A stretch of DNA of 64,000 nucleotides. It comes from a virus. Lineage: Duplodnaviria; Caudoviricetes. The notes beneath the pieces were generated by a model. That model was not told the DNA's origin, searched no databases, and saw nothing but the letters and a program-made list of their open reading frames with translations. The position numbers and the translations under genes were made by a program. Below are positions 1,888 to 54,223 of this stretch, piece after piece. The DNA lies in IMG/VR virus record IMGVR_UViG_3300026176_000228, positions 1 to 64,000 of that record. One strand, 5' to 3'. Numbering within the stretch: position 1 is the stretch's first letter; the number at the start of each line of letters is the position of its first letter.

Positions 1888-2817
1888 ATGGCAGAGAAAC
1901 TAGATTTTGGCCCCAATATAACTGATGCTCAATCATATTCTTCATACGGATACGATGTTGACAGACTTGAATATAAAGAGAATTATGCACGCTGCGAATA
2001 TATGATTGAATTACCCTGGTACAAAGAAATGTTGGCTTTCAATGCCGAGAAACAAGCATTATCTAACGCCGTAATTGATGGCATTACTTTTTCTGTTACA
2101 CCATCATTCAAGGATTATGTTGTCAAAAGAAAGAAATCGGCTTATATTTATTTTCTAGTGGACTCCGAGGGTAGCTTACTGTATATCGGCAAAAGCACCA
2201 GTTTGTGTGGTCGTATTAGAAGTCATATCAAAGCTGGTATTATTCCATTTGTGCGAGTAGTTGCAATTCGACTGGATGATTACTTAGAGAAGTCAAACAC
2301 TGAATTGTCTCGCTGTGAGGATTATTTTATCAAGAAGCTCAATCCTCCCTATAATTTACAGGGCACCGAGCAGTTCAAGCGCGGTAAACTAAATCCACGT
2401 TTCAGAAGCAACACATGGGCGGGTTGGCGAATCGATGTTGTTATCCAGGATAAAAAAGCGGAAGTAGACGAACAGAAGGAGGTTTTTGCTGGCATCGTAA
2501 AGATGCTTGGTATCGGTGTAGTTGAAGCTAAAGCTGAAATCTTTAAAGAGGGCATGTACCGTATTGTGCATGATCCTAAGTATAAAGAACAACGCGATGA
2601 GGATTTGTTTCTAGCTCAATCTATGCGTGAATTACGTGCTGAACTTGACCGTATTGATAGACTAAGTAGCCTCTATCATCGCATGGTGGATGCTTATCCC
2701 GATGGAGAAGAGCGATTTACGCAGTTCTGCATTGATACTAAAGTCTCTGATGAAGACCAAAAATTAGCTAGACGACAAACAGAATCAAACCTAAAGCGTA
2801 ATGGTGATTTCCGGTAG
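1888..2817 (+). CDS. GIY-YIG nuclease domain protein
   Basis: AYIYFL...LLYIGKS...RIRSH...E..FIKKLNPPYN GIY-YIG signature; start 1888 after ggag (alternative 1873). Confidence 0.8.
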   Translation: MAEKLDFGPNITDAQSYSSYGYDVDRLEYKENYARCEYMIELPWYKEMLAFNAEKQALSNAVIDGITFSVTPSFKDYVVKRKKSAYIYFLVDSEGSLLYIGKSTSLCGRIRSHIKAGIIPFVRVVAIRLDDYLEKSNTELSRCEDYFIKKLNPPYNLQGTEQFKRGKLNPRFRSNTWAGWRIDVVIQDKKAEVDEQKEVFAGIVKMLGIGVVEAKAEIFKEGMYRIVHDPKYKEQRDEDLFLAQSMRELRAELDRIDRLSSLYHRMVDAYPDGEERFTQFCIDTKVSDEDQKLARRQTESNLKRNGDFR

Positions 2818-2841
2818 AATTGGGAAATCTAATCTTTACTT

Positions 2842-2855
2842 TTAGCATATGCCAA
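2842..2855. promoter_or_regulatory. Dispersed palindrome copy 2 (TTAGCATATGCCAA)
   Basis: Directly upstream of the methyltransferase RBS. Confidence 0.75.
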
Positions 2856-2868
2856 AAAAGGATGCTTT

Positions 2869-3528
2869 ATGGAACCAACCTGGAGTTCGGATAATGGGAA
2901 TGTGCAGTTGTATTTAGGGGATAGCCTCGCTGTGCTGCCGACGCTGCCCGCCGATAGCGTTGACCTCATCCTCACCGACCCGCCGTACAACGTAGGCATC
3001 AAATACGGCTCAACCTACAACGACAACAAAACACCGGATGAGTTCAGGGCATGGGCCGCAAGCTGGTTCGCTGAATGTCGCAGGATTGCCAAAACGGTGC
3101 TTATCACTGGGCAAGCAAGGTTGCCAGATTATGCGCTGATTGAGCCGTGGAAGTGGTTGTTAGCTTGGTGGAAGCCTGCCGCTATGGGACGTTCGCCGGT
3201 TGGTTTTTGCAACTTTGAGCCGATTGCGATGTGGGGGAAGGGCAGTAATGCGGGGGTGGACGTTATCAAGGCTCGTATTGTGCCAGATGCGGCGCTATCA
3301 GGGCATCCATGCCCTAAGCCTCTTGATTGGGCACTAGGGCAACTGGCATTATTTCCCAATGCTGCAACCGTCCTCGACCCGTTCATGGGCAGCGGGACGA
3401 CAGGAGTTGCAGCGGTGCAGACGGGGCGCAAGTTCATCGGCATTGAGATTGACCCTGATTACTTTGAAATCGCGAAACGACGTATCATCGAGCAACTGGA
3501 ACACAATTCTATCTTTGACCTAACTTAA
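2869..3528 (+). CDS. DNA amino-methyltransferase (beta class, DPPY)
   Basis: LILTDPPY...HPCPKP...VLDPFMGSGTTG. Confidence 0.92.
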   Translation: MEPTWSSDNGNVQLYLGDSLAVLPTLPADSVDLILTDPPYNVGIKYGSTYNDNKTPDEFRAWAASWFAECRRIAKTVLITGQARLPDYALIEPWKWLLAWWKPAAMGRSPVGFCNFEPIAMWGKGSNAGVDVIKARIVPDAALSGHPCPKPLDWALGQLALFPNAATVLDPFMGSGTTGVAAVQTGRKFIGIEIDPDYFEIAKRRIIEQLEHNSIFDLT

Positions 3529-38516: not shown

Positions 38517-38709
38517 TGTCACTATGAGATTCCTGTTCCATGGTGGCCGCGAGCCAGCCATTATTGAGTACTTGAATCAGTTCATAGGTAAAGAGTCGGG
38601 GAATATTGACACCTGCAACTTCAAACGGTGGTACATCTAAGGACCAAGTTTCGAGAAAATGCAAGTGTTGTGCATTGACTTCTGCGGCGCGCGCGAGGGC
38701 ATCAGGCAT
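38491..38709 (-). CDS. Hypothetical protein
   Basis: aaggag RBS; lies between the two transferases. Confidence 0.5.
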   Translation of the reverse strand: MPDALARAAEVNAQHLHFLETWSLDVPPFEVAGVNIPRLFTYELIQVLNNGWLAATMEQESHSDNATTEDSL

Positions 38710-40373
38710 TGGTAGGCTCCTTGGGCAACCAGTTGACGAAATGTAGCATAGGCAGTCTGCCGCGTTGAATCCGCACATCTTTGGCGATTTGCTGGTAAAC
38801 TTTTTCGTAAGCAGGCAATTGGTTGATTGCCAGTAGACTGCGATAGTAAGGCACGCGCGCGGTCGCGGTTTCTTGTTCCTGAATCAAATTACGGATCACT
38901 CGCGCCATGGTATCGTACCAGGCTTTGTTGTCATTGGGAATCGCGTAGCCTAGATGCTCTAAGTCGCGATAAGGTTCGCCCTGCGTGCCAATCCACGGTA
39001 CACCTGCCAAGCCGCATTCCAGAGCTTTAATCCAACTTCTGTGCTGGTCGTAGATACCGCAGAGAGGCGCGAGGCCAATATCAAAGGTCTTGACAACTGT
39101 CGGCCAAAGCGCAGGTTCTACACCAGGTTGGAGCAGTTTATTGTCGCGCGGCACCGGCAGCATGTCATAGATACGCGGGTCATTGCCGCAGAGCATAAAC
39201 ACAACCTGTGGAAACTTCTTCGCAATGTCATACGCGGCTTCACGAATTTCCGTACCCCACCAAGAGTCATAGTGCGAGACACTGCCACCCCAACCGATAA
39301 CTACGCGGTCAGTCAATTTGAGTTTAGCTTTTTGTTCCGCACGCGTAGGCATGACTTCCGGCCAGAAAGTATGGTCCGCGTAGTTAGGCAGGTAGTAACC
39401 TTGGACTGCGTAGCTCCAGTCTTGCAACAGCAGACGATTGGGCGCGGTCAAACCATCGCTCTTGCGCAGGCCGCGTTCGAGAATGTCTAAAGGTGCCGGA
39501 TCAAGGTCGTGCTTGTTCTCAATCCAGAACGCGTGCGCGGGATTACTCCAGGGTAAGATATGGTAGGCATCGTCTAAGTCAATCGAGACAGTCTTGCCTA
39601 GACCCTGGAAGTATTCAATCGCGTCAATGACTTTCTCGTTGATGACGTTACGCTGCACGCGTACGTGGTCCGCTTGCATGATCCAGTCTTGGATGACCGG
39701 ATTGATGTAATCCGTGAAACCAGAGACGTGGATTAATTTGGCAGACCAGTCTTTGAACGCGGGATCGTGTTCCGCGCGATAATTGATGGCATTCGCAGGC
39801 GTGAGATCACGCCACTGGCTCACATAATCTGGTCTTCCGACACAGTGTAGGACTATCTCATATTCCTGATAAATTCAGGAACCGGGGCGCTGATGAGGTC
39901 TTATTGTTGGGACTCAACCTCTAAGTCTCTGAACCTTCCGTGATACCTTAGCCCATCACGGCTTGGCTGCGGATTACCCGATAATGTTGCCAACATCTCT
40001 TGGGCTTCCCGATTAGATTGGCTACCCTGGCAATCTAACTTTCAATTCACCCCGTTTTTCAATGCTAGTTACCTAGCAAAGCTGCCACCCAGACAGTTCC
40101 ATTCAGTTTGGCTCGGAAATTAATTTTTGTTACATCTACCTAAGATAGATGGTCAAGTCATTTCTGCTTGACTCTGCATCTTTACTTATACATGCAGCCC
40201 GGACTTTGCCTTCATCCCGTAGGATGCGCCCCATCAAGTCTCTACACCTTCCATCTACTGATGGCTTGGCTCGACGTTGCCCACTCTTGGGGTGTTCATC
40301 GAATTTGAGGCGTTCACTGACTTAGTTACCTAAGTTTCGGACTAACATCCGCGTAGATAAAAACTATTTTCAA
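38702..40373 (-). CDS. GT4-like glycosyltransferase, 3 exons: 40373-40347, 40113-40093, 39820-38702 (388 aa, MKIVFIYAD-SQTEWNC-SQWRDL...)
   Basis: RBS aaagga plus TTG; in-frame after removing two group I introns; DLDDAY, IGWGGS.SH, DIGLAPL, RSWIKALE. Confidence 0.85.
39821..40092 (-). ncRNA. Group I intron 2 of glycosyltransferase (272 nt, ORF-less)
   Basis: 5' exon ends in U (tgt) with P1 ctgtc/ggcag U.G pair; core ggttcagagactt ... gagatagtcc (P7); terminal G. Confidence 0.88.
40114..40346 (-). ncRNA. Group I intron 1 of glycosyltransferase (233 nt, ORF-less)
   Basis: P1 cggat/gtccg with U.G pair; gtgtagagactt ... ggcaaagtcc (P7); gcagaaatgac P9 region; terminal G. Confidence 0.88.
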
Positions 40374-49339: not shown

Positions 49340-51156
49340 TTAAACTGCCGAGAAGATCACACTTCCCGCGTCGCTGGCTGTGATTTTTTCCACCACTGAA
49401 TGACTGGCCTCAATCTTGTCCGTGTATTCCTCTTCCCTGCGGAAGCGGCGCACCTGACGACCATTCCATTCGAGCAGGTAGCCTGCCGCGGGCGTCAGCA
49501 GCGCGGGCGCGGATGGGACATAGCCCAGCCACATACCGTCACCCCAGATATACTGCGGGCTACCGGTTTGGCCTTCCAGCGCCGGGTCAAACAGCGACAT
49601 GCCGATCAGAAACTTCTCGAAGCCGAACCACTCGCCAAAGTCACTGGTCATGACGCGCGCGTTCGGGCGAGTGTATTTTACGCGGTCCAGCAGATCGGGA
49701 TGCTGGCGCAGATGCCGCCACACGTCCCAACTAATGACCGCCACATTGGGCATGCGCCCGATAGTCGAGACGACGCCGTTGATCGCATCTTCGATGTCAC
49801 CGTAGGGGTCAGATGTGTCGCTGGACCACTGGGTCGTGGGTGAAGCCGCGTAAGCCCACAGCGCAGAGCCACCCGTGGTTAGGTCAGCAATCCGTTTTTC
49901 CTGTGCGCGCAGGAGTTGGTCCATGACGAATTCAACGGCTTCCGCGTCAGGTCGCAGCGGACTGTCTGCGTTTTGTCGAACTTCCACTTTTGTTACTACT
50001 TACTTGCGTAAGCGGGTAGATCATTTCTGTCTACCTCTACGGGTTCACTTCCCCGTAGGTCGGAGCACATCATCATCCCAGTAGGATGTTGGCTCTATGC
50101 TCTCTACACATTTCAATTCGCATTTGTACTTTGCTAATGCGTATGATATAATGGCATTAGAAAGGTGGTTTTATGGATTCTAATACATACAAGAAACTTT
50201 GGAAGGCTAAGCGCATCGCTGAAGGTCTATGTTATCGCTGCGGTAAACCTCGCACTGACGACCGTAAAATTTGCGCTGCTTGTAACAAGAAGTCTAACCG
50301 CAGGGCTGCTGCTTGGCGAGAACGGGTTTTGATTGAACGTCGCTGTACTAGTTGTGGTGAACCATTAGCAGAGAATGAAACTCGACTCACTTGTTCGACC
50401 TGTGCCGCTAAAAACTCTAAGGCTACCCGTGAAAAGCAGAAACAAGCAATCGCTAATGGCCTGTGTGAAGCATGTCAGAAAAACCCTATTGGCTCTCGCT
50501 CTTCTGTTTGTTGTGATGCGTGTTATGAAAAACGCTTGGTATCACATCGTAAGATTCATAGTAGAATCAACTTTGGCGGTTTACGTGAAGCCGCCCTAGA
50601 GCGAGATAACCATGTCTGCCGCGCTTGTGGGTCAAGCACTAAACTTGAAGTTCATCACCTAGATGGCAATCGTCAGCATAACGAGTTATCTAATTTCATA
50701 ACCCTTTGTCATAATTGCCATGTGCTTTTGACCCGTATGATCGAAGCGCCTAATCTTCCGTTTCTGTATGAACTTGTAAAGGTGCAAATGCGAATTGTTT
50801 AGCTCGGTATTGGCATCTCAGCTTCCACCGAATTAGGCCAATTTTCACCGTCACATTGCTATGGCGGGGGACAAAAGTTTATCCGGAACTAATTTTGAGA
50901 TTGCCCACGTTGGGGTGTAGTAACTGGCTGTCGTTAGATCGTAATCTGCCTCAGCCGACCGCGCACCCGGTGCCCGCTTTTGCACGTCAATGCGTTGCCA
51001 AGCCTGCCGGGGAAATTCCCAGATGTAGTCCGTCTGCTTCTGGACTGGCACGCGCGGAAAGATTTGATCGCCAATGTAAAGTTGATTCTTGTACGCCAGG
51101 CTGAGCGAGGTCAGCGCGGCGTCAAGATGGACATCTCGCACAGAGGGTAGAGCCAT
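49340..51156 (-). CDS. Major capsid protein, 2 exons: 51156-50881 and 49984-49340 (306 aa, ...KLVPD|EVRQNADSP...)
   Basis: VHLDAALTSLSLAYKN, IFPRVPVQKQ, LRQHP, IWGD, PAAGY; in-frame after intron removal. Confidence 0.92.
49985..50880 (-). mobile_element. Group I intron (896 nt) in major capsid gene, carrying an antisense HNH ORF
   Basis: P1 ggataaa/tttgtcc with U.G pair; P7 gagca/tgctc; P10 gaagtt/aacttt; terminal G at 49985. Confidence 0.92.
50173..50802 (+). CDS. Intron-encoded HNH endonuclease with tandem Cys4 Zn-ribbon repeats
   Basis: ALERDNHVCRACG...LEVHHLDG...NFITLCHNCH; own TATAAT and aaaggtgg RBS. Confidence 0.9.
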   Translation: MDSNTYKKLWKAKRIAEGLCYRCGKPRTDDRKICAACNKKSNRRAAAWRERVLIERRCTSCGEPLAENETRLTCSTCAAKNSKATREKQKQAIANGLCEACQKNPIGSRSSVCCDACYEKRLVSHRKIHSRINFGGLREAALERDNHVCRACGSSTKLEVHHLDGNRQHNELSNFITLCHNCHVLLTRMIEAPNLPFLYELVKVQMRIV

Positions 51157-51171
51157 CGTATTATACTCCTA

Positions 51172-51576
51172 TCAATCCGCCCACTTCTGGGGGCCGGTGA
51201 GAAAGATCGTCGCGTTCATGCCACAACCACTCGCGATGGATTCCTGCGCGATGCCCAAGCGGGTCGCGGACGCCGCAGGATTGAGCGCGCCACAAGCGCG
51301 GCCATCCGAAGCGGTCTTGACCCACTGACCGAATACCAGCGGCGAGGCTGCGGATTCGCAGTTGACTTCCACCTTGGTGAAGCCGAACACGCGCACGGTC
51401 GCCATTTCCCCAGCCTTGGGATCATTCTGCAAGACACCTAGTGGTGAACCTGCGACGACATTGGATAGCGAGACTTCGCCAGCTACCGAACCAGCCTTGA
51501 CGAAGTGGTACTGCGAAGCGGAGAGATCAATGGCCGCGATGTAGGTGTGATCAATGCCCCAATATTGGACTGCCAT
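51172..51576 (-). CDS. Capsid cement/decoration protein (DUF2190-like)
   Basis: DLSASQYHFVK, LGVLQNDPKAGE; between scaffold and capsid genes. Confidence 0.8.
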   Translation of the reverse strand: MAVQYWGIDHTYIAAIDLSASQYHFVKAGSVAGEVSLSNVVAGSPLGVLQNDPKAGEMATVRVFGFTKVEVNCESAASPLVFGQWVKTASDGRACGALNPAASATRLGIAQESIASGCGMNATIFLTGPQKWAD

Positions 51577-52461
51577 TTAGCCCTCCTGCGCGGACTTGGC
51601 CCGCGAGCGCACGCTGCGTAGGTAGGCTTCGGCGTCTTTCTTGGACAGCTTGAGAATTTCAGCCTTGGGGTCATCCGACTTGGCAATGACCGCGAGGGCA
51701 TCCGGCTGTTCCGGCGTAAAGGCCGTGCCTTTTTCAATGAAGAGTTCCGCGTCAGCGGCCATGGCATCCACGGACTTCAGTAGATCAGTCCAGAATGACA
51801 GGCGCTTGGCATCCCACTTCGCCAGGGCGTGCAGTTGTTCACCGAGTTCGACAGGAGCGACAGGAATGGCCGCGAAGCTATTCGCCTTGGCGATATAAGT
51901 CTCGCGATCACGCTCTTCGCGCGCCTTTTCGACCTCGGCAACCAGGGCTGCATTCGCTTTTTCAAGTTCCGTGAGACGGCTTTCGAGGGCCGCTTTCTCG
52001 ACGGTGTCTTCCATGGTTGCCTCCGGGTTTGAGGTTTGAGGCTCACTGGCCTCGGATTCGGGTTTAGGTGTGGTCATGGATTCTAGTTCTGAAACTTTTT
52101 CGAGTTGCTTGGCCTCGACTACCGTCTCGGCAGGTATAACTTCAGAAGCAGCTTCAGGTTCTGGCTCAGGTTCTGGTTCAAGTGTAACTTCAGCTACAGG
52201 TTCGACTTCAGTTTCAGCTTTGACTAGTTCGGCCATCTCTGTATCTACGGTTTTCTGGAAGAGTTTGAGGAAACGCGTCCAGAGATTAGTTTCAGGAGTG
52301 GCCGCAGCCGTAATATCGCCCGCTACAGTAGCTACATCATTAGTATCAGACTTGAGCAAGAAGAATTCCTCGCGATTCGCCCCTTGAGTGACCAGCCCAA
52401 GAGTCTCGACTTGGACATCGCTGAGTTCAGTGATGATGGTGTTGTGGTCGTTATCAGGCAT
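51577..52461 (-). CDS. Scaffolding protein with an XkdF-like N-terminal strand
   Basis: ELSDVQVETLGLVTQGANREEFFLLKS, acidic linker, coiled coil. Confidence 0.75.
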   Translation of the reverse strand: MPDNDHNTIITELSDVQVETLGLVTQGANREEFFLLKSDTNDVATVAGDITAAATPETNLWTRFLKLFQKTVDTEMAELVKAETEVEPVAEVTLEPEPEPEPEAASEVIPAETVVEAKQLEKVSELESMTTPKPESEASEPQTSNPEATMEDTVEKAALESRLTELEKANAALVAEVEKAREERDRETYIAKANSFAAIPVAPVELGEQLHALAKWDAKRLSFWTDLLKSVDAMAADAELFIEKGTAFTPEQPDALAVIAKSDDPKAEILKLSKKDAEAYLRSVRSRAKSAQEG

Positions 52462-53080: not shown

Positions 53081-54223
53081 CTAAAGCCCAACGGCTTCTT
53101 GGGGCACGCACGCCGCAACCGGCCACGTTACGCCCCAGGCTCGCTGTCCGCGGGCCAGCAGATTACGTGCAGCGTTCTCATCTCGATCCATAGATAAGCC
53201 ACACGCGCACCGCACCCAGCGATCTGCTAACGTTAGGTGCTCAAATATAGAACCGCATTGTGAGCAGGTTTTAGATGAATAAGCGGGATTGACTGCCACA
53301 ATTAACTTCCCGGCCCATGCTGCCTTGAAAACTAATTGACTACGGAAGTAACCCCACGAAGCATCTAGAATGCTCTTTGATAAATGATGGTTCTTTACCA
53401 TATTGGTGATTTGTAAATCTTCAATCGCAATACGGTCATAATGTGATACTAAATTATGGACTGTTTTTTTGATGAAATCAGTACGTCGATTAGCGATACG
53501 CCGATGGTGTAACTGCACCGCGCGCTTGGCCCTACCCCGACCTCGACTACCATTCTTGCGACGCGACATACGCCGCTGTAAGACGCGAAATTTAGCTTGC
53601 TCAGTACGATACCATTTCGGGTTTTCGATATGTTCACCGTTTGATATGGTGAGTAATGAGCTAATACCCACATCAATTCCAGCTTCTTGACCAGTTAGCC
53701 CAAGTGGTTGTGGGTCTATCTCACAAGCAAAGCAAACATACCATTTATTCGCTTGTCTACGGATGCGTATGGTTTTGATTCTACCCTCTATGGGACGATG
53801 CCAGCGAACCGCGACGCGTCCAATACCCGATAGTTTCAAACGCCGACCGTCAATCTTGAAACCGTTGTTTAGTTCTTTAAAACCAAAAGAATCATAACGG
53901 CCACGTTCACGAAAGCGTGGATAACCCGGTGTCTCGCCTGCCTTAACCCGGCGAAAAAACGCCTGAAACGCTTTATCCAAATCAGTCGTGACGACTTGCA
54001 AGACATGACTGTGAATCTGTCCAGCGAAGGAGTTTGCCCTGCGGTAGTTCTTAACGTTTGCTAATTGCTCAAACTTGCCAACACTGCGTTTTTCTCCTTC
54101 CCACGCATCTCTGCGTTCCGCAAGACAAGTATTGTACCAGTGACGACAAGTTTCAAGCGTTTGATTTAGTAGACGCGCTTGATTCTTGCTTGGATACAAA
54201 CGGTATTTGTAGGTAATCAGCAT
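53081..54223 (-). CDS. tnpB: TnpB RNA-guided endonuclease
   Basis: YKYRLYP, GIDVG, IAIEDL, CSQCG/CACG, DRDENAARN; RuvC D-E-D intact. Confidence 0.95.
   Translation of the reverse strand: MLITYKYRLYPSKNQARLLNQTLETCRHWYNTCLAERRDAWEGEKRSVGKFEQLANVKNYRRANSFAGQIHSHVLQVVTTDLDKAFQAFFRRVKAGETPGYPRFRERGRYDSFGFKELNNGFKIDGRRLKLSGIGRVAVRWHRPIEGRIKTIRIRRQANKWYVCFACEIDPQPLGLTGQEAGIDVGISSLLTISNGEHIENPKWYRTEQAKFRVLQRRMSRRKNGSRGRGRAKRAVQLHHRRIANRRTDFIKKTVHNLVSHYDRIAIEDLQITNMVKNHHLSKSILDASWGYFRSQLVFKAAWAGKLIVAVNPAYSSKTCSQCGSIFEHLTLADRWVRCACGLSMDRDENAARNLLARGQRAWGVTWPVAACVPQEAVGL

Follow-up and report, generated by a model that had tools for sequence, protein, structure and literature searches.

How can an antisense endonuclease gene be expressed without harming the highly expressed capsid gene in which it sits? 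The question is raised by a stretch of 64,000 nucleotides (nt) of Caudoviricetes DNA, hereafter the window, which is a 64-kb part of the 104.8-kb IMG/VR virus record IMGVR_UViG_3300026176_000228. On the minus strand of this window, the gene for the major capsid protein is interrupted by an insert, inside which a gene for an HNH homing endonuclease is read from the plus strand. It is quite likely that the insert is a self-splicing and mobile group I intron placed between capsid residues D92 and E93, and that its antisense HNH gene would be expressed separately, from a promoter of its own. At the level of the sequence, the comparisons described below establish the continuity of the exons, the homology and covariation of the ribozyme, the intactness and conservation of the antisense open reading frame (ORF), and the sharing of the whole layout by a second phage.

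The two exons of the capsid gene comprise 92 and 214 codons, and excision of 50880..49985 on the minus strand (896 nt) joins them in frame, KLVPD to EVRQNAD, into a protein of 306 amino acids (aa). This join had been proposed in a first, sequence-only reading of the locus, and both profile ranges and alignment to 306-aa homologues place it correctly to the base. Exon 1 matches positions 7-94 of the phrog_1005 profile (PHROG 1005, “major head protein”, Phage_cap_E-like) with an E-value of 5.5e-21, and exon 2 matches positions 95-312 of the 315 in that profile (E 1.5e-47). Because the two ranges adjoin, the position of the intron costs the capsid protein no residues and duplicates none. A homologue search with exon 2 returned 151 relatives, and most of the 120 listed are uninterrupted proteins of 305-306 aa; 306 aa is also the modal length among more than 100 uninterrupted capsid homologues. 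When aligned to the 306-aa homologues, the exons abut at VPD|EVRxNAD with neither gap nor overlap, exon 1 supplying residues 1-92, and the intron site D92|E93 is a codon boundary inside the most conserved motif of the capsid family. Of the uninterrupted relatives, P0001 (306 aa) comes nearest, with 96-97% identity, while homologues about 33% identical are annotated as major capsid protein in cultured Arthrobacter phages. The ligated exons are predicted to read ...CCGGAU-GAAGUUCGA..., with exon 2 beginning GAAGUU; left unspliced, the frame of exon 1 runs nine codons into the intron and then meets a stop.

All helices from P1 to P9.2 can be drawn on the insert (Table 1). P1 pairs GGAU|AA with UUGUCC (6/6 pairs) and sets the pair U(50881).G(50872) at the 5′ splice site. 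At the opposite end, the tail GUAACAAAAGUG agrees with that of the intron family and its last base is G, and GAAGU of exon 2 could form a P10 with ACUUU in the guide region. The inverted repeat that had earlier been thought to loop the HNH gene out of the ribozyme does so as the P6 stem: its 19-nt arms (50114-50132 and 50779-50797) are 89% complementary (17/19 pairs) with 646 nt between them, and the HNH gene therefore lies in the P6 loop. Minimum-free-energy folding of the full 916-nt RNA recovers P2, P4, P5, P7, P8, P9, P9.1, and P9.2 together with 13 of the 19 P6 pairs, i.e., 9 of 11 helices. In that fold, P1 has a competitor: intron bases 3-10 (ACUUUUGU, 50878-50871, in the P1/P10 guide region) are perfectly complementary to 49993-49986 (ACAAAAGU, the 8 bases before the terminal G). 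This complementarity is not kept in the second copy of the intron described below, and it may be due to chance or may be an alternative pairing that positions the 3′ splice site. Two other kinds of element, an intein and a group II intron, were considered and rejected, since the insert contains in-frame stops and an ORF on the opposite strand, lacks a reverse transcriptase, measures just 896 nt, and has group I core elements.

Homology was assessed with two covariance models, R1 for the 3′ half of the ribozyme and R2 for the 5′ half, built from 13-15 ORF-less introns of other phages, none of them from the window. Searched against the 64-kb window, both models found the insert with the scores given in Table 1, R1 matching over its full length with 29/29 pairs standard. 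The two matches lie on the capsid strand and in the expected order, one on each side of the HNH ORF. In an alignment of 11 R1 matches (A7, capsid intron included), 92% of the cells were paired, as compared with 70% after shuffling and 31-40% with slid partners, and both sides change in 23 of the 29 pairs. P3, which reaches across the two halves, shows 5/5 pairing at a fixed offset in 22 of 104 family copies vs. 1.7 in shuffles, and its sequences are compensatory: UUGGC/GCCAA in the capsid intron, CUCCG/CGGAG in L101, and CGUCG/CGACG in L096. The P7 of the capsid intron is a variant, GAGCA/UGCUC, in which the first two pairs (G-C and A-U) are kept and pairs 3 and 4 are changed; it recurs in the ORF-less relatives L101 and L123, and the covaried pairing described in the sequence-only reading is real. 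That reading's group I intron with exact boundaries is likewise upheld by the family models, the covariation, and the uninterrupted homologues. The capsid insert is thus confirmed as a group I intron, the splicing of which is predicted.

As had also been seen at the outset, the HNH ORF lies on the strand opposite to the capsid gene, and it is intact. It matches phrog_1271 (E 8e-14) and carries a beta-beta-alpha-metal HNH motif flanked by CxxC pairs. When 1.8 billion representatives were searched exhaustively, E < 1e-30 was reached by five proteins only (P0122-P0126), which are 207-209 aa long and 35-50% identical, and all of their invariant Cys, His, and Asn residues are present in the window protein. 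The pattern C149xxC152...EVHH(161-162)...N174...C179xxC182H183 is invariant in the alignment with these five and P0129. A word-based homologue search returned only the HNH protein itself, and a scan of genome contigs for the HNH family yielded distant HNH domains only and no clue to the host. At its 3′ end the gene is interlocked with the ribozyme: the P6 5′ arm is complementary to the final eight codons, the TAG stop corresponds on the other strand to CUA in the GCUAAA element directly downstream of P4′, and the overlap extends up to the last P4′ pair in both this copy and the second one.

The capsid transcript cannot express this antisense gene. Upstream of the HNH gene, there is a perfect extended -10 element (TATAAT at 50147-50152, TG at 50144-45; TGaTATAAT, 50144-52), separated by a 17-nt spacer from a -35-like TTGTAC (50124-29) within the P6 3′ arm DNA. 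A ribosome-binding site (RBS), AGGTGG at 50163-50168, follows, with the ATG at 50173. The TATAAT and RBS originally reported in front of the gene are therefore both there, and the gene is plausibly self-promoted. Similar cassettes are found in two sense members of the family, L089 and L094, in which ORFs with TTGAC.-TATAAT promoters come directly after the P6 5′ arm. The promoter region also contains a 13-nt imperfect hairpin, ACTTTGCTAATGC / GCATTAGAAAGGT (50128-50166, plus strand), whose loop contains the -10 hexamer and whose 3′ arm spans the HNH RBS; in the intron RNA, the complement of this hairpin stacks beside the P6 3′ arm.

Table 1. Features of the interrupted capsid gene, its intron, and its immediate surroundings (positions in the window; strand; remarks).
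Feature	Position	Strand	Remarks
Major capsid exon 1	51156..50881	-	92 codons; C-terminal KLVPD; final base U
Group I intron	49985..50880	-	896 nt; preceded by U, terminal omega-G at 49985
Major capsid exon 2	49984..49340	-	214 codons; N-terminal EVRQNAD
5′ ribozyme half	50796..50897	-	model R2, 33.8 bits, E 1.8e-6
P1	50884-50879/50874-50869	-	U.G at splice site
P2	50867-50860/50855-50848	-	GCAA loop
P3	5′ strand 50841-50837, 3′ strand 50093-50089	-	5/5 pairs, UUGGC/GCCAA
P4	50832-50826/50809-50803	-	7/7 pairs
P5	50822-21/50814-13	-	2 bp
P6 5′ arm	50779..50797	-	inverted repeat; complement encodes last residues of HNH protein
P6 3′ arm	50114..50132	-	inverted repeat
3′ ribozyme half (including J6/7)	49982..50117	-	model R1, 100.6 bits, E 2.4e-24
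P7	50102-50098/50067-50063	-	GAGCA/UGCUC, 5/5 pairs
P8	50088-84/50078-74	-	5/5 pairs
P9	50058-52/50043-37	-	
P9.1	50035-30/50020-15	-	
P9.2	50012-08/50003-49999	-	GCAA loop
Promoter-like element and RBS of HNH gene	50124..50168	+	read from sequence
HNH homing-endonuclease gene	50173..50802	+	209 aa; three CxxC...CxxC zinc ribbons and HNH domain
Scaffold or protease-like gene	52461..51577	-	family matches; upstream of capsid gene
Cement or decoration-like gene	51576..51172	-	family matches; upstream of capsid gene

A metagenome scan returned a second phage with the same antisense design, on a groundwater contig (L282). An intron of 889 nt interrupts its capsid gene at the corresponding codon boundary, ...VAD|EVRENAD; exons 1 and 2 are respectively 53% and 52% identical to those of the window. 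R1 matches the 3′ half of this intron on the capsid strand, here also the minus strand (76.2 bits, E 1.5e-18). The arms of a 10-bp P6 stem enclose, on the other strand, a gene for an HNH homologue (202 aa, 39% identical), whose stop is again the complement of CUA in GCUAAA. On the plus strand, TTGACA-17-TGtTAGCAT has its -35 in the P6 3′ arm, at the same place relative to the arm as the window element, and is the better promoter-like element of the two. P2, P3, P4, P6, P8, P9, and P9.1 have sequences unlike those of the window copy, and all of them pair; the intron-side pairs of P1 differ as well (UC/GA vs. AA/UU in the window copy), while the splice boundaries U| and G| and the U.G in P1 are as in the window copy. 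Since two far-diverged phages share the whole layout with an intact ORF, the comparison indicates that the antisense design is inherited and maintained by purifying selection, and is not a recent accident.

Further alleles of this kind may exist. Five shortened capsid homologues (P0062, P0033, P0034, P0108, and P0110) start at or just after the junction region, and these may be additional intron-bearing alleles. P0062 (229 aa, from a Logan assembly) is a likely third case: its EVYANAD is preceded by ...STSNRL, residues that a group I intron tail like AGUAACAGAUUG, at exactly the D92|E93 site, could yield if translated in frame. AGUAACAGAUUG is a back-translation that resembles the tails of L282 and of the L023 intron discussed below.

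How exceptional is the orientation? The sequence-only reading had stated that antisense endonuclease genes are uncommon, and orientation is nowhere raised in the main review on bacterial group I introns. A census was made of 113 distinct copies of the intron family from IMG/VR, in each of which P4′, the conserved pre-P7 element, and P7′ were located. In about 31 copies, P6 or the interval from P7 to P7′ is enlarged by an insertion exceeding 250 nt, and in all of these the longest ORF is in the sense orientation. The window copy alone in this census has an antisense ORF without a sense one, making it 1 of about 32 ORF-bearing copies, and the statement that such genes are uncommon holds for this family. 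The same is seen from the enzyme's side: at 80 IMG/VR loci with distant HNH relatives, every R1 or R2 intron match is on the strand of the HNH gene.

The family itself is large. The P4-P5-P4′ word (AATTCGGTGGA...CAATACCGAGC), common to the capsid intron and to the L023 intron, is present in more than 118 IMG/VR stretches, which points to a very large phage intron family. A capsid gene of L023 whose product is 52% identical, and which recurs unchanged in L024 and L061, is interrupted at 2805-3037 by an ORF-less intron that scores 56.2 bits with the Rfam model RF00028 and so passes its gathering score, which is 50 bits. P4, P8, and J8/7 of this intron are close to those of the capsid intron, and P9 and P9.1 are almost identical. 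Its insertion point lies 28 nt downstream of D92|E93 and separates the first base of the Leu codon in NADSP(L)RPE from the other two. As different phages have related introns here only 28 nt from each other, the stretch VPDEVRxNADxPLRP is an intron hot spot. Other searches of IMG/VR were less productive: locus searches with a single capsid fragment or a single HNH protein as query found none, and a degenerate junction pattern (intron ...TG followed by the EVRxNAD codons) matched 32 stretches with no relevant capsid allele among them.

Members of the family also occur elsewhere in the window and in other phages. Two tandem ORF-less group I introns (40174-40366 and 39829-40071, minus strand) lie at the 5′ end of a gene with a long ORF at 39823..38702. 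The first scores 86.6 bits with R1 and 44.4 bits with R2, and belongs to the subfamily of the capsid intron, with an identical P8, the P9.1 loop CAGAAAUGA, and the tail GUAACAAAA. Closely related ORF-less introns are found in L096, L101, L102, L106, L108, L123, L145, L155, L181, and L188, with up to two per locus (L102); they interrupt one conserved gene with exon peptides like ...GKNPEDGSKNY.... At L266 (2283-3126), a family intron carries a distant zinc-ribbon/HNH relative in the sense orientation, and there is a TTGACA-type promoter-like site in its P6 region. This locus was considered as a sense relative with its ORF in P6 and was rejected: the ORF begins ahead of the P7 5′ strand, takes in P7.1 and P7.2, and stops within the 3′ arm of P8. 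Because it runs from the P7 region into P8, L266 is uninformative about an inversion across P6.

The following course of events would account for the arrangement. The late capsid transcript would fold into the ribozyme, its 19-bp P6 stem closing the 646-nt loop, and the intron would excise itself using the U.G of P1, the omega-G, and P10 with GAAGU of exon 2, leaving an mRNA for the normal 306-aa capsid protein. Transcription of the HNH gene would most likely start at a separate promoter of the sigma-70 type with an extended -10, the -35 of which is embedded in the P6 3′ arm DNA. We infer that a host-type HNH promoter acting early and a capsid promoter acting late would keep the two RNAs apart. 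When relatives co-infect the cell, the HNH enzyme would then nick or cut those of their capsid alleles that lack the intron, and repair would copy the intron into them (homing). The antisense orientation itself was probably acquired when a promoter-plus-ORF cassette was inverted across the P6 arms, or by reverse insertion, and would have been inherited since.

The signs of mobility are indirect. The site lies in the most conserved motif of the capsid protein, intron-less alleles exist at 96-97% identity, and differences are clustered 3′ of the site. Exon 2 and P0001 disagree at 7 of the 19 residues that directly follow the junction (codons 49984-49928), as opposed to only a few of the remaining ~195, a pattern that would be expected of a co-conversion tract or of escape by the target site. 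At the insertion site, the differences among intron-less alleles are mainly synonymous, and the sequence GAAGTTCGA after the site is common to the two intron-bearing alleles only.

Several points weigh against this account of a splicing, mobile intron with a self-promoted antisense gene. It rests on the sequence of a metagenomic contig, and the antisense design was recovered in two copies only. The whole 64-kb window gave no match to RF00028 at the gathering score, nor did the whole intron at E-values up to 10 or the isolated 3′ half, and the isolated 5′ half reached only 15 bits (E 0.06), below the gathering threshold. This failure is attributed to the generality of the model, which also cannot bridge the 692 nt, with the P6 stem and the ORF, that separate P4′ from the conserved pre-P7 element; the weak 5′-half match does reproduce the hand-drawn P1, P2, P3, P4-P5, and start of P6. 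Even the two ORF-less introns of the window score below the threshold with RF00028 (43.7 and 38 bits), which is why relatives were sought for the capsid intron. Within the ribozyme, P5 is just 2 bp long, and P2 and P6 contain mismatches. As for the enzyme, the Pfam HNH model (PF01844) gives 18.4 bits, below its cut-off of 21.4. Finally, the -35 TTGTAC is weak, and a consensus promoter scanner called no promoter for the HNH gene, rejecting the promoter-like site because its -35 matches 3/6 consensus positions; nor does the window show a significant excess of TGNTATAAT, considered as a promoter word of the phage (6 found vs. 2.4 expected).

Other explanations must also be weighed. The HNH mRNA could act as an antisense regulator that tunes splicing, and hence capsid output or timing, either by base-pairing in the capsid pre-mRNA with the P6 loop, the 5′ arm of P6, and the end of P4′, or through convergent transcription. 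Such a role, which could be added to the account above, is unlikely. It would make sense of the overlap of the HNH 3′ end with the ribozyme to the last P4′ pair in both copies and of the conserved layout; moreover, the scanner found no terminator-like site after the gene on the plus strand, so that read-through into P4-P1 and exon 1 would be possible. However, the conservation is equally well explained by selection on the endonuclease alone, and an early host-type promoter and a late capsid promoter would separate the two RNAs. As regards the modulation of splicing suggested by the sequence-only reading, the conserved layout argues only that the antisense arrangement is tolerated.

It is quite improbable that the intron splices while its HNH gene is a silent passenger, i.e., a cassette flipped between the P6 arms, unexpressed and decaying. 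The weak -35 and the silence of the promoter scanner would fit, as would the frequency of ORF-less relatives of this ribozyme, and an antisense site in the most heavily transcribed late gene would be expected to suffer transcriptional interference. Yet the ORF is intact with all the invariant zinc and catalytic residues present, and the L282 copy, at 39% identity, has kept its length, orientation, stop position, and an even better promoter-like element, which argues for purifying selection rather than decay.

Least credible by far is the idea that nothing is spliced and that a free-standing HNH element split the capsid gene into two polypeptides that assemble together: T4-like phages do provide cases of genes divided into two functional parts by homing-endonuclease insertions, and ORF callers put a GTG at the start of the second fragment, but this GTG is the last three bases of the intron, no Shine-Dalgarno sequence was found before it, a complete covarying ribozyme with correct U/G boundaries and P1/P10 pairing surrounds the ORF, and the boundaries are identical in L282.

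The best-placed explanation thus remains a group I intron that would splice from the capsid transcript while its antisense HNH gene is expressed separately. The capsid gene belongs to a head module at about 49.3-52.5 kb, in which all long ORFs are on the minus strand (Table 1). An ORF for a 380-aa TnpB-like (OrfB_IS605-type) transposon nuclease lies 600 nt upstream of this module (53081-54223, minus strand), and it raises the already high load of mobile elements in the window.

Among known systems, the td intron of phage T4 interrupts the thymidylate synthase gene, and its endonuclease I-TevI is a GIY-YIG enzyme encoded in the sense orientation, with T4 middle and late promoters and a translation controlled by RNA structure. 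The P4 and GCUAAAU elements of L282 resemble those of td, and the capsid intron belongs to the same broad ribozyme family. The td endonuclease gene, like that of the window, occupies a loop of P6, and its promoters lie within the intron, as is proposed for the window gene (PMC2988022).

A close parallel in layout is found in the capsid gene of the Cluster J mycobacteriophage LittleE, where splicing has been shown by RT-PCR (reverse transcription polymerase chain reaction) and N-terminal sequencing, a precedent for the efficient splicing of such capsid introns (PMC3706429). There too, an intron of about 0.8 kb interrupts the major capsid gene, with U at the end of exon 1 and G at the end of the intron, and an endonuclease-like frame is located on the bottom (antisense) strand (PMC3706429). 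The LittleE frame is however LAGLIDADG-like, whereas that of the window is HNH, and the intron was called just “most likely group I” (PMC3706429). The promoter and the conservation of the antisense gene were not analyzed in that paper (PMC3706429), and the likeness considered here is one of layout. Phage group I introns with HNH-type, probably nicking enzymes are represented by I-HmuI/I-HmuII (SPO1/SP82) and I-PfoP3I (Pf-WMP3), which target conserved sites of essential genes, as the window enzyme would; these are encoded in the sense orientation in DNA polymerase genes (PMC3428280), while the window protein has three N-terminal zinc ribbons.

Antisense endonuclease genes in peripheral loops are also present in the nuclear rDNA introns Dir.S956-2 and Dsq.L2066, where an internal promoter transcribes the antisense gene and the same problem of interference with the host transcript is met (PMC9548176, PMC3679873). 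Unlike the window intron, these are eukaryotic, encode a His-Cys box enzyme in P9.2 or other loops, and have rRNA as their host (PMC9548176, PMC3679873). There, RNA polymerase II and RNA polymerase I are involved with nucleolar separation, along with poly(A) and spliceosomal introns (PMC9548176, PMC3679873). The expression of these antisense His-Cys box genes is studied as an unsolved problem (PMC9548176).

Phage capsid group I introns and antisense endonuclease genes are each documented, and the category is therefore not new. What is added here is a rigorously supported phage example of an antisense HNH enzyme in a capsid intron, a count of orientations within one large intron family, a second and deeply diverged copy with the same site, orientation, and stop-codon and promoter position, and an intron hot spot in one capsid family. 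As bacteria have a single compartment for transcription and translation, the locus offers a compact system for studying how an antisense endonuclease is expressed within a highly expressed gene that depends on splicing. Might the intron lineage even keep its endonuclease antisense on purpose, coupling its mobility in time to capsid production? This would be achieved if early HNH and late capsid transcription were mutually exclusive, or if the HNH RNA served as a brake on splicing. The odds are against such a reading, but if true, the lineage would be the bacterial counterpart of the unsolved expression of antisense endonucleases in nuclear introns.

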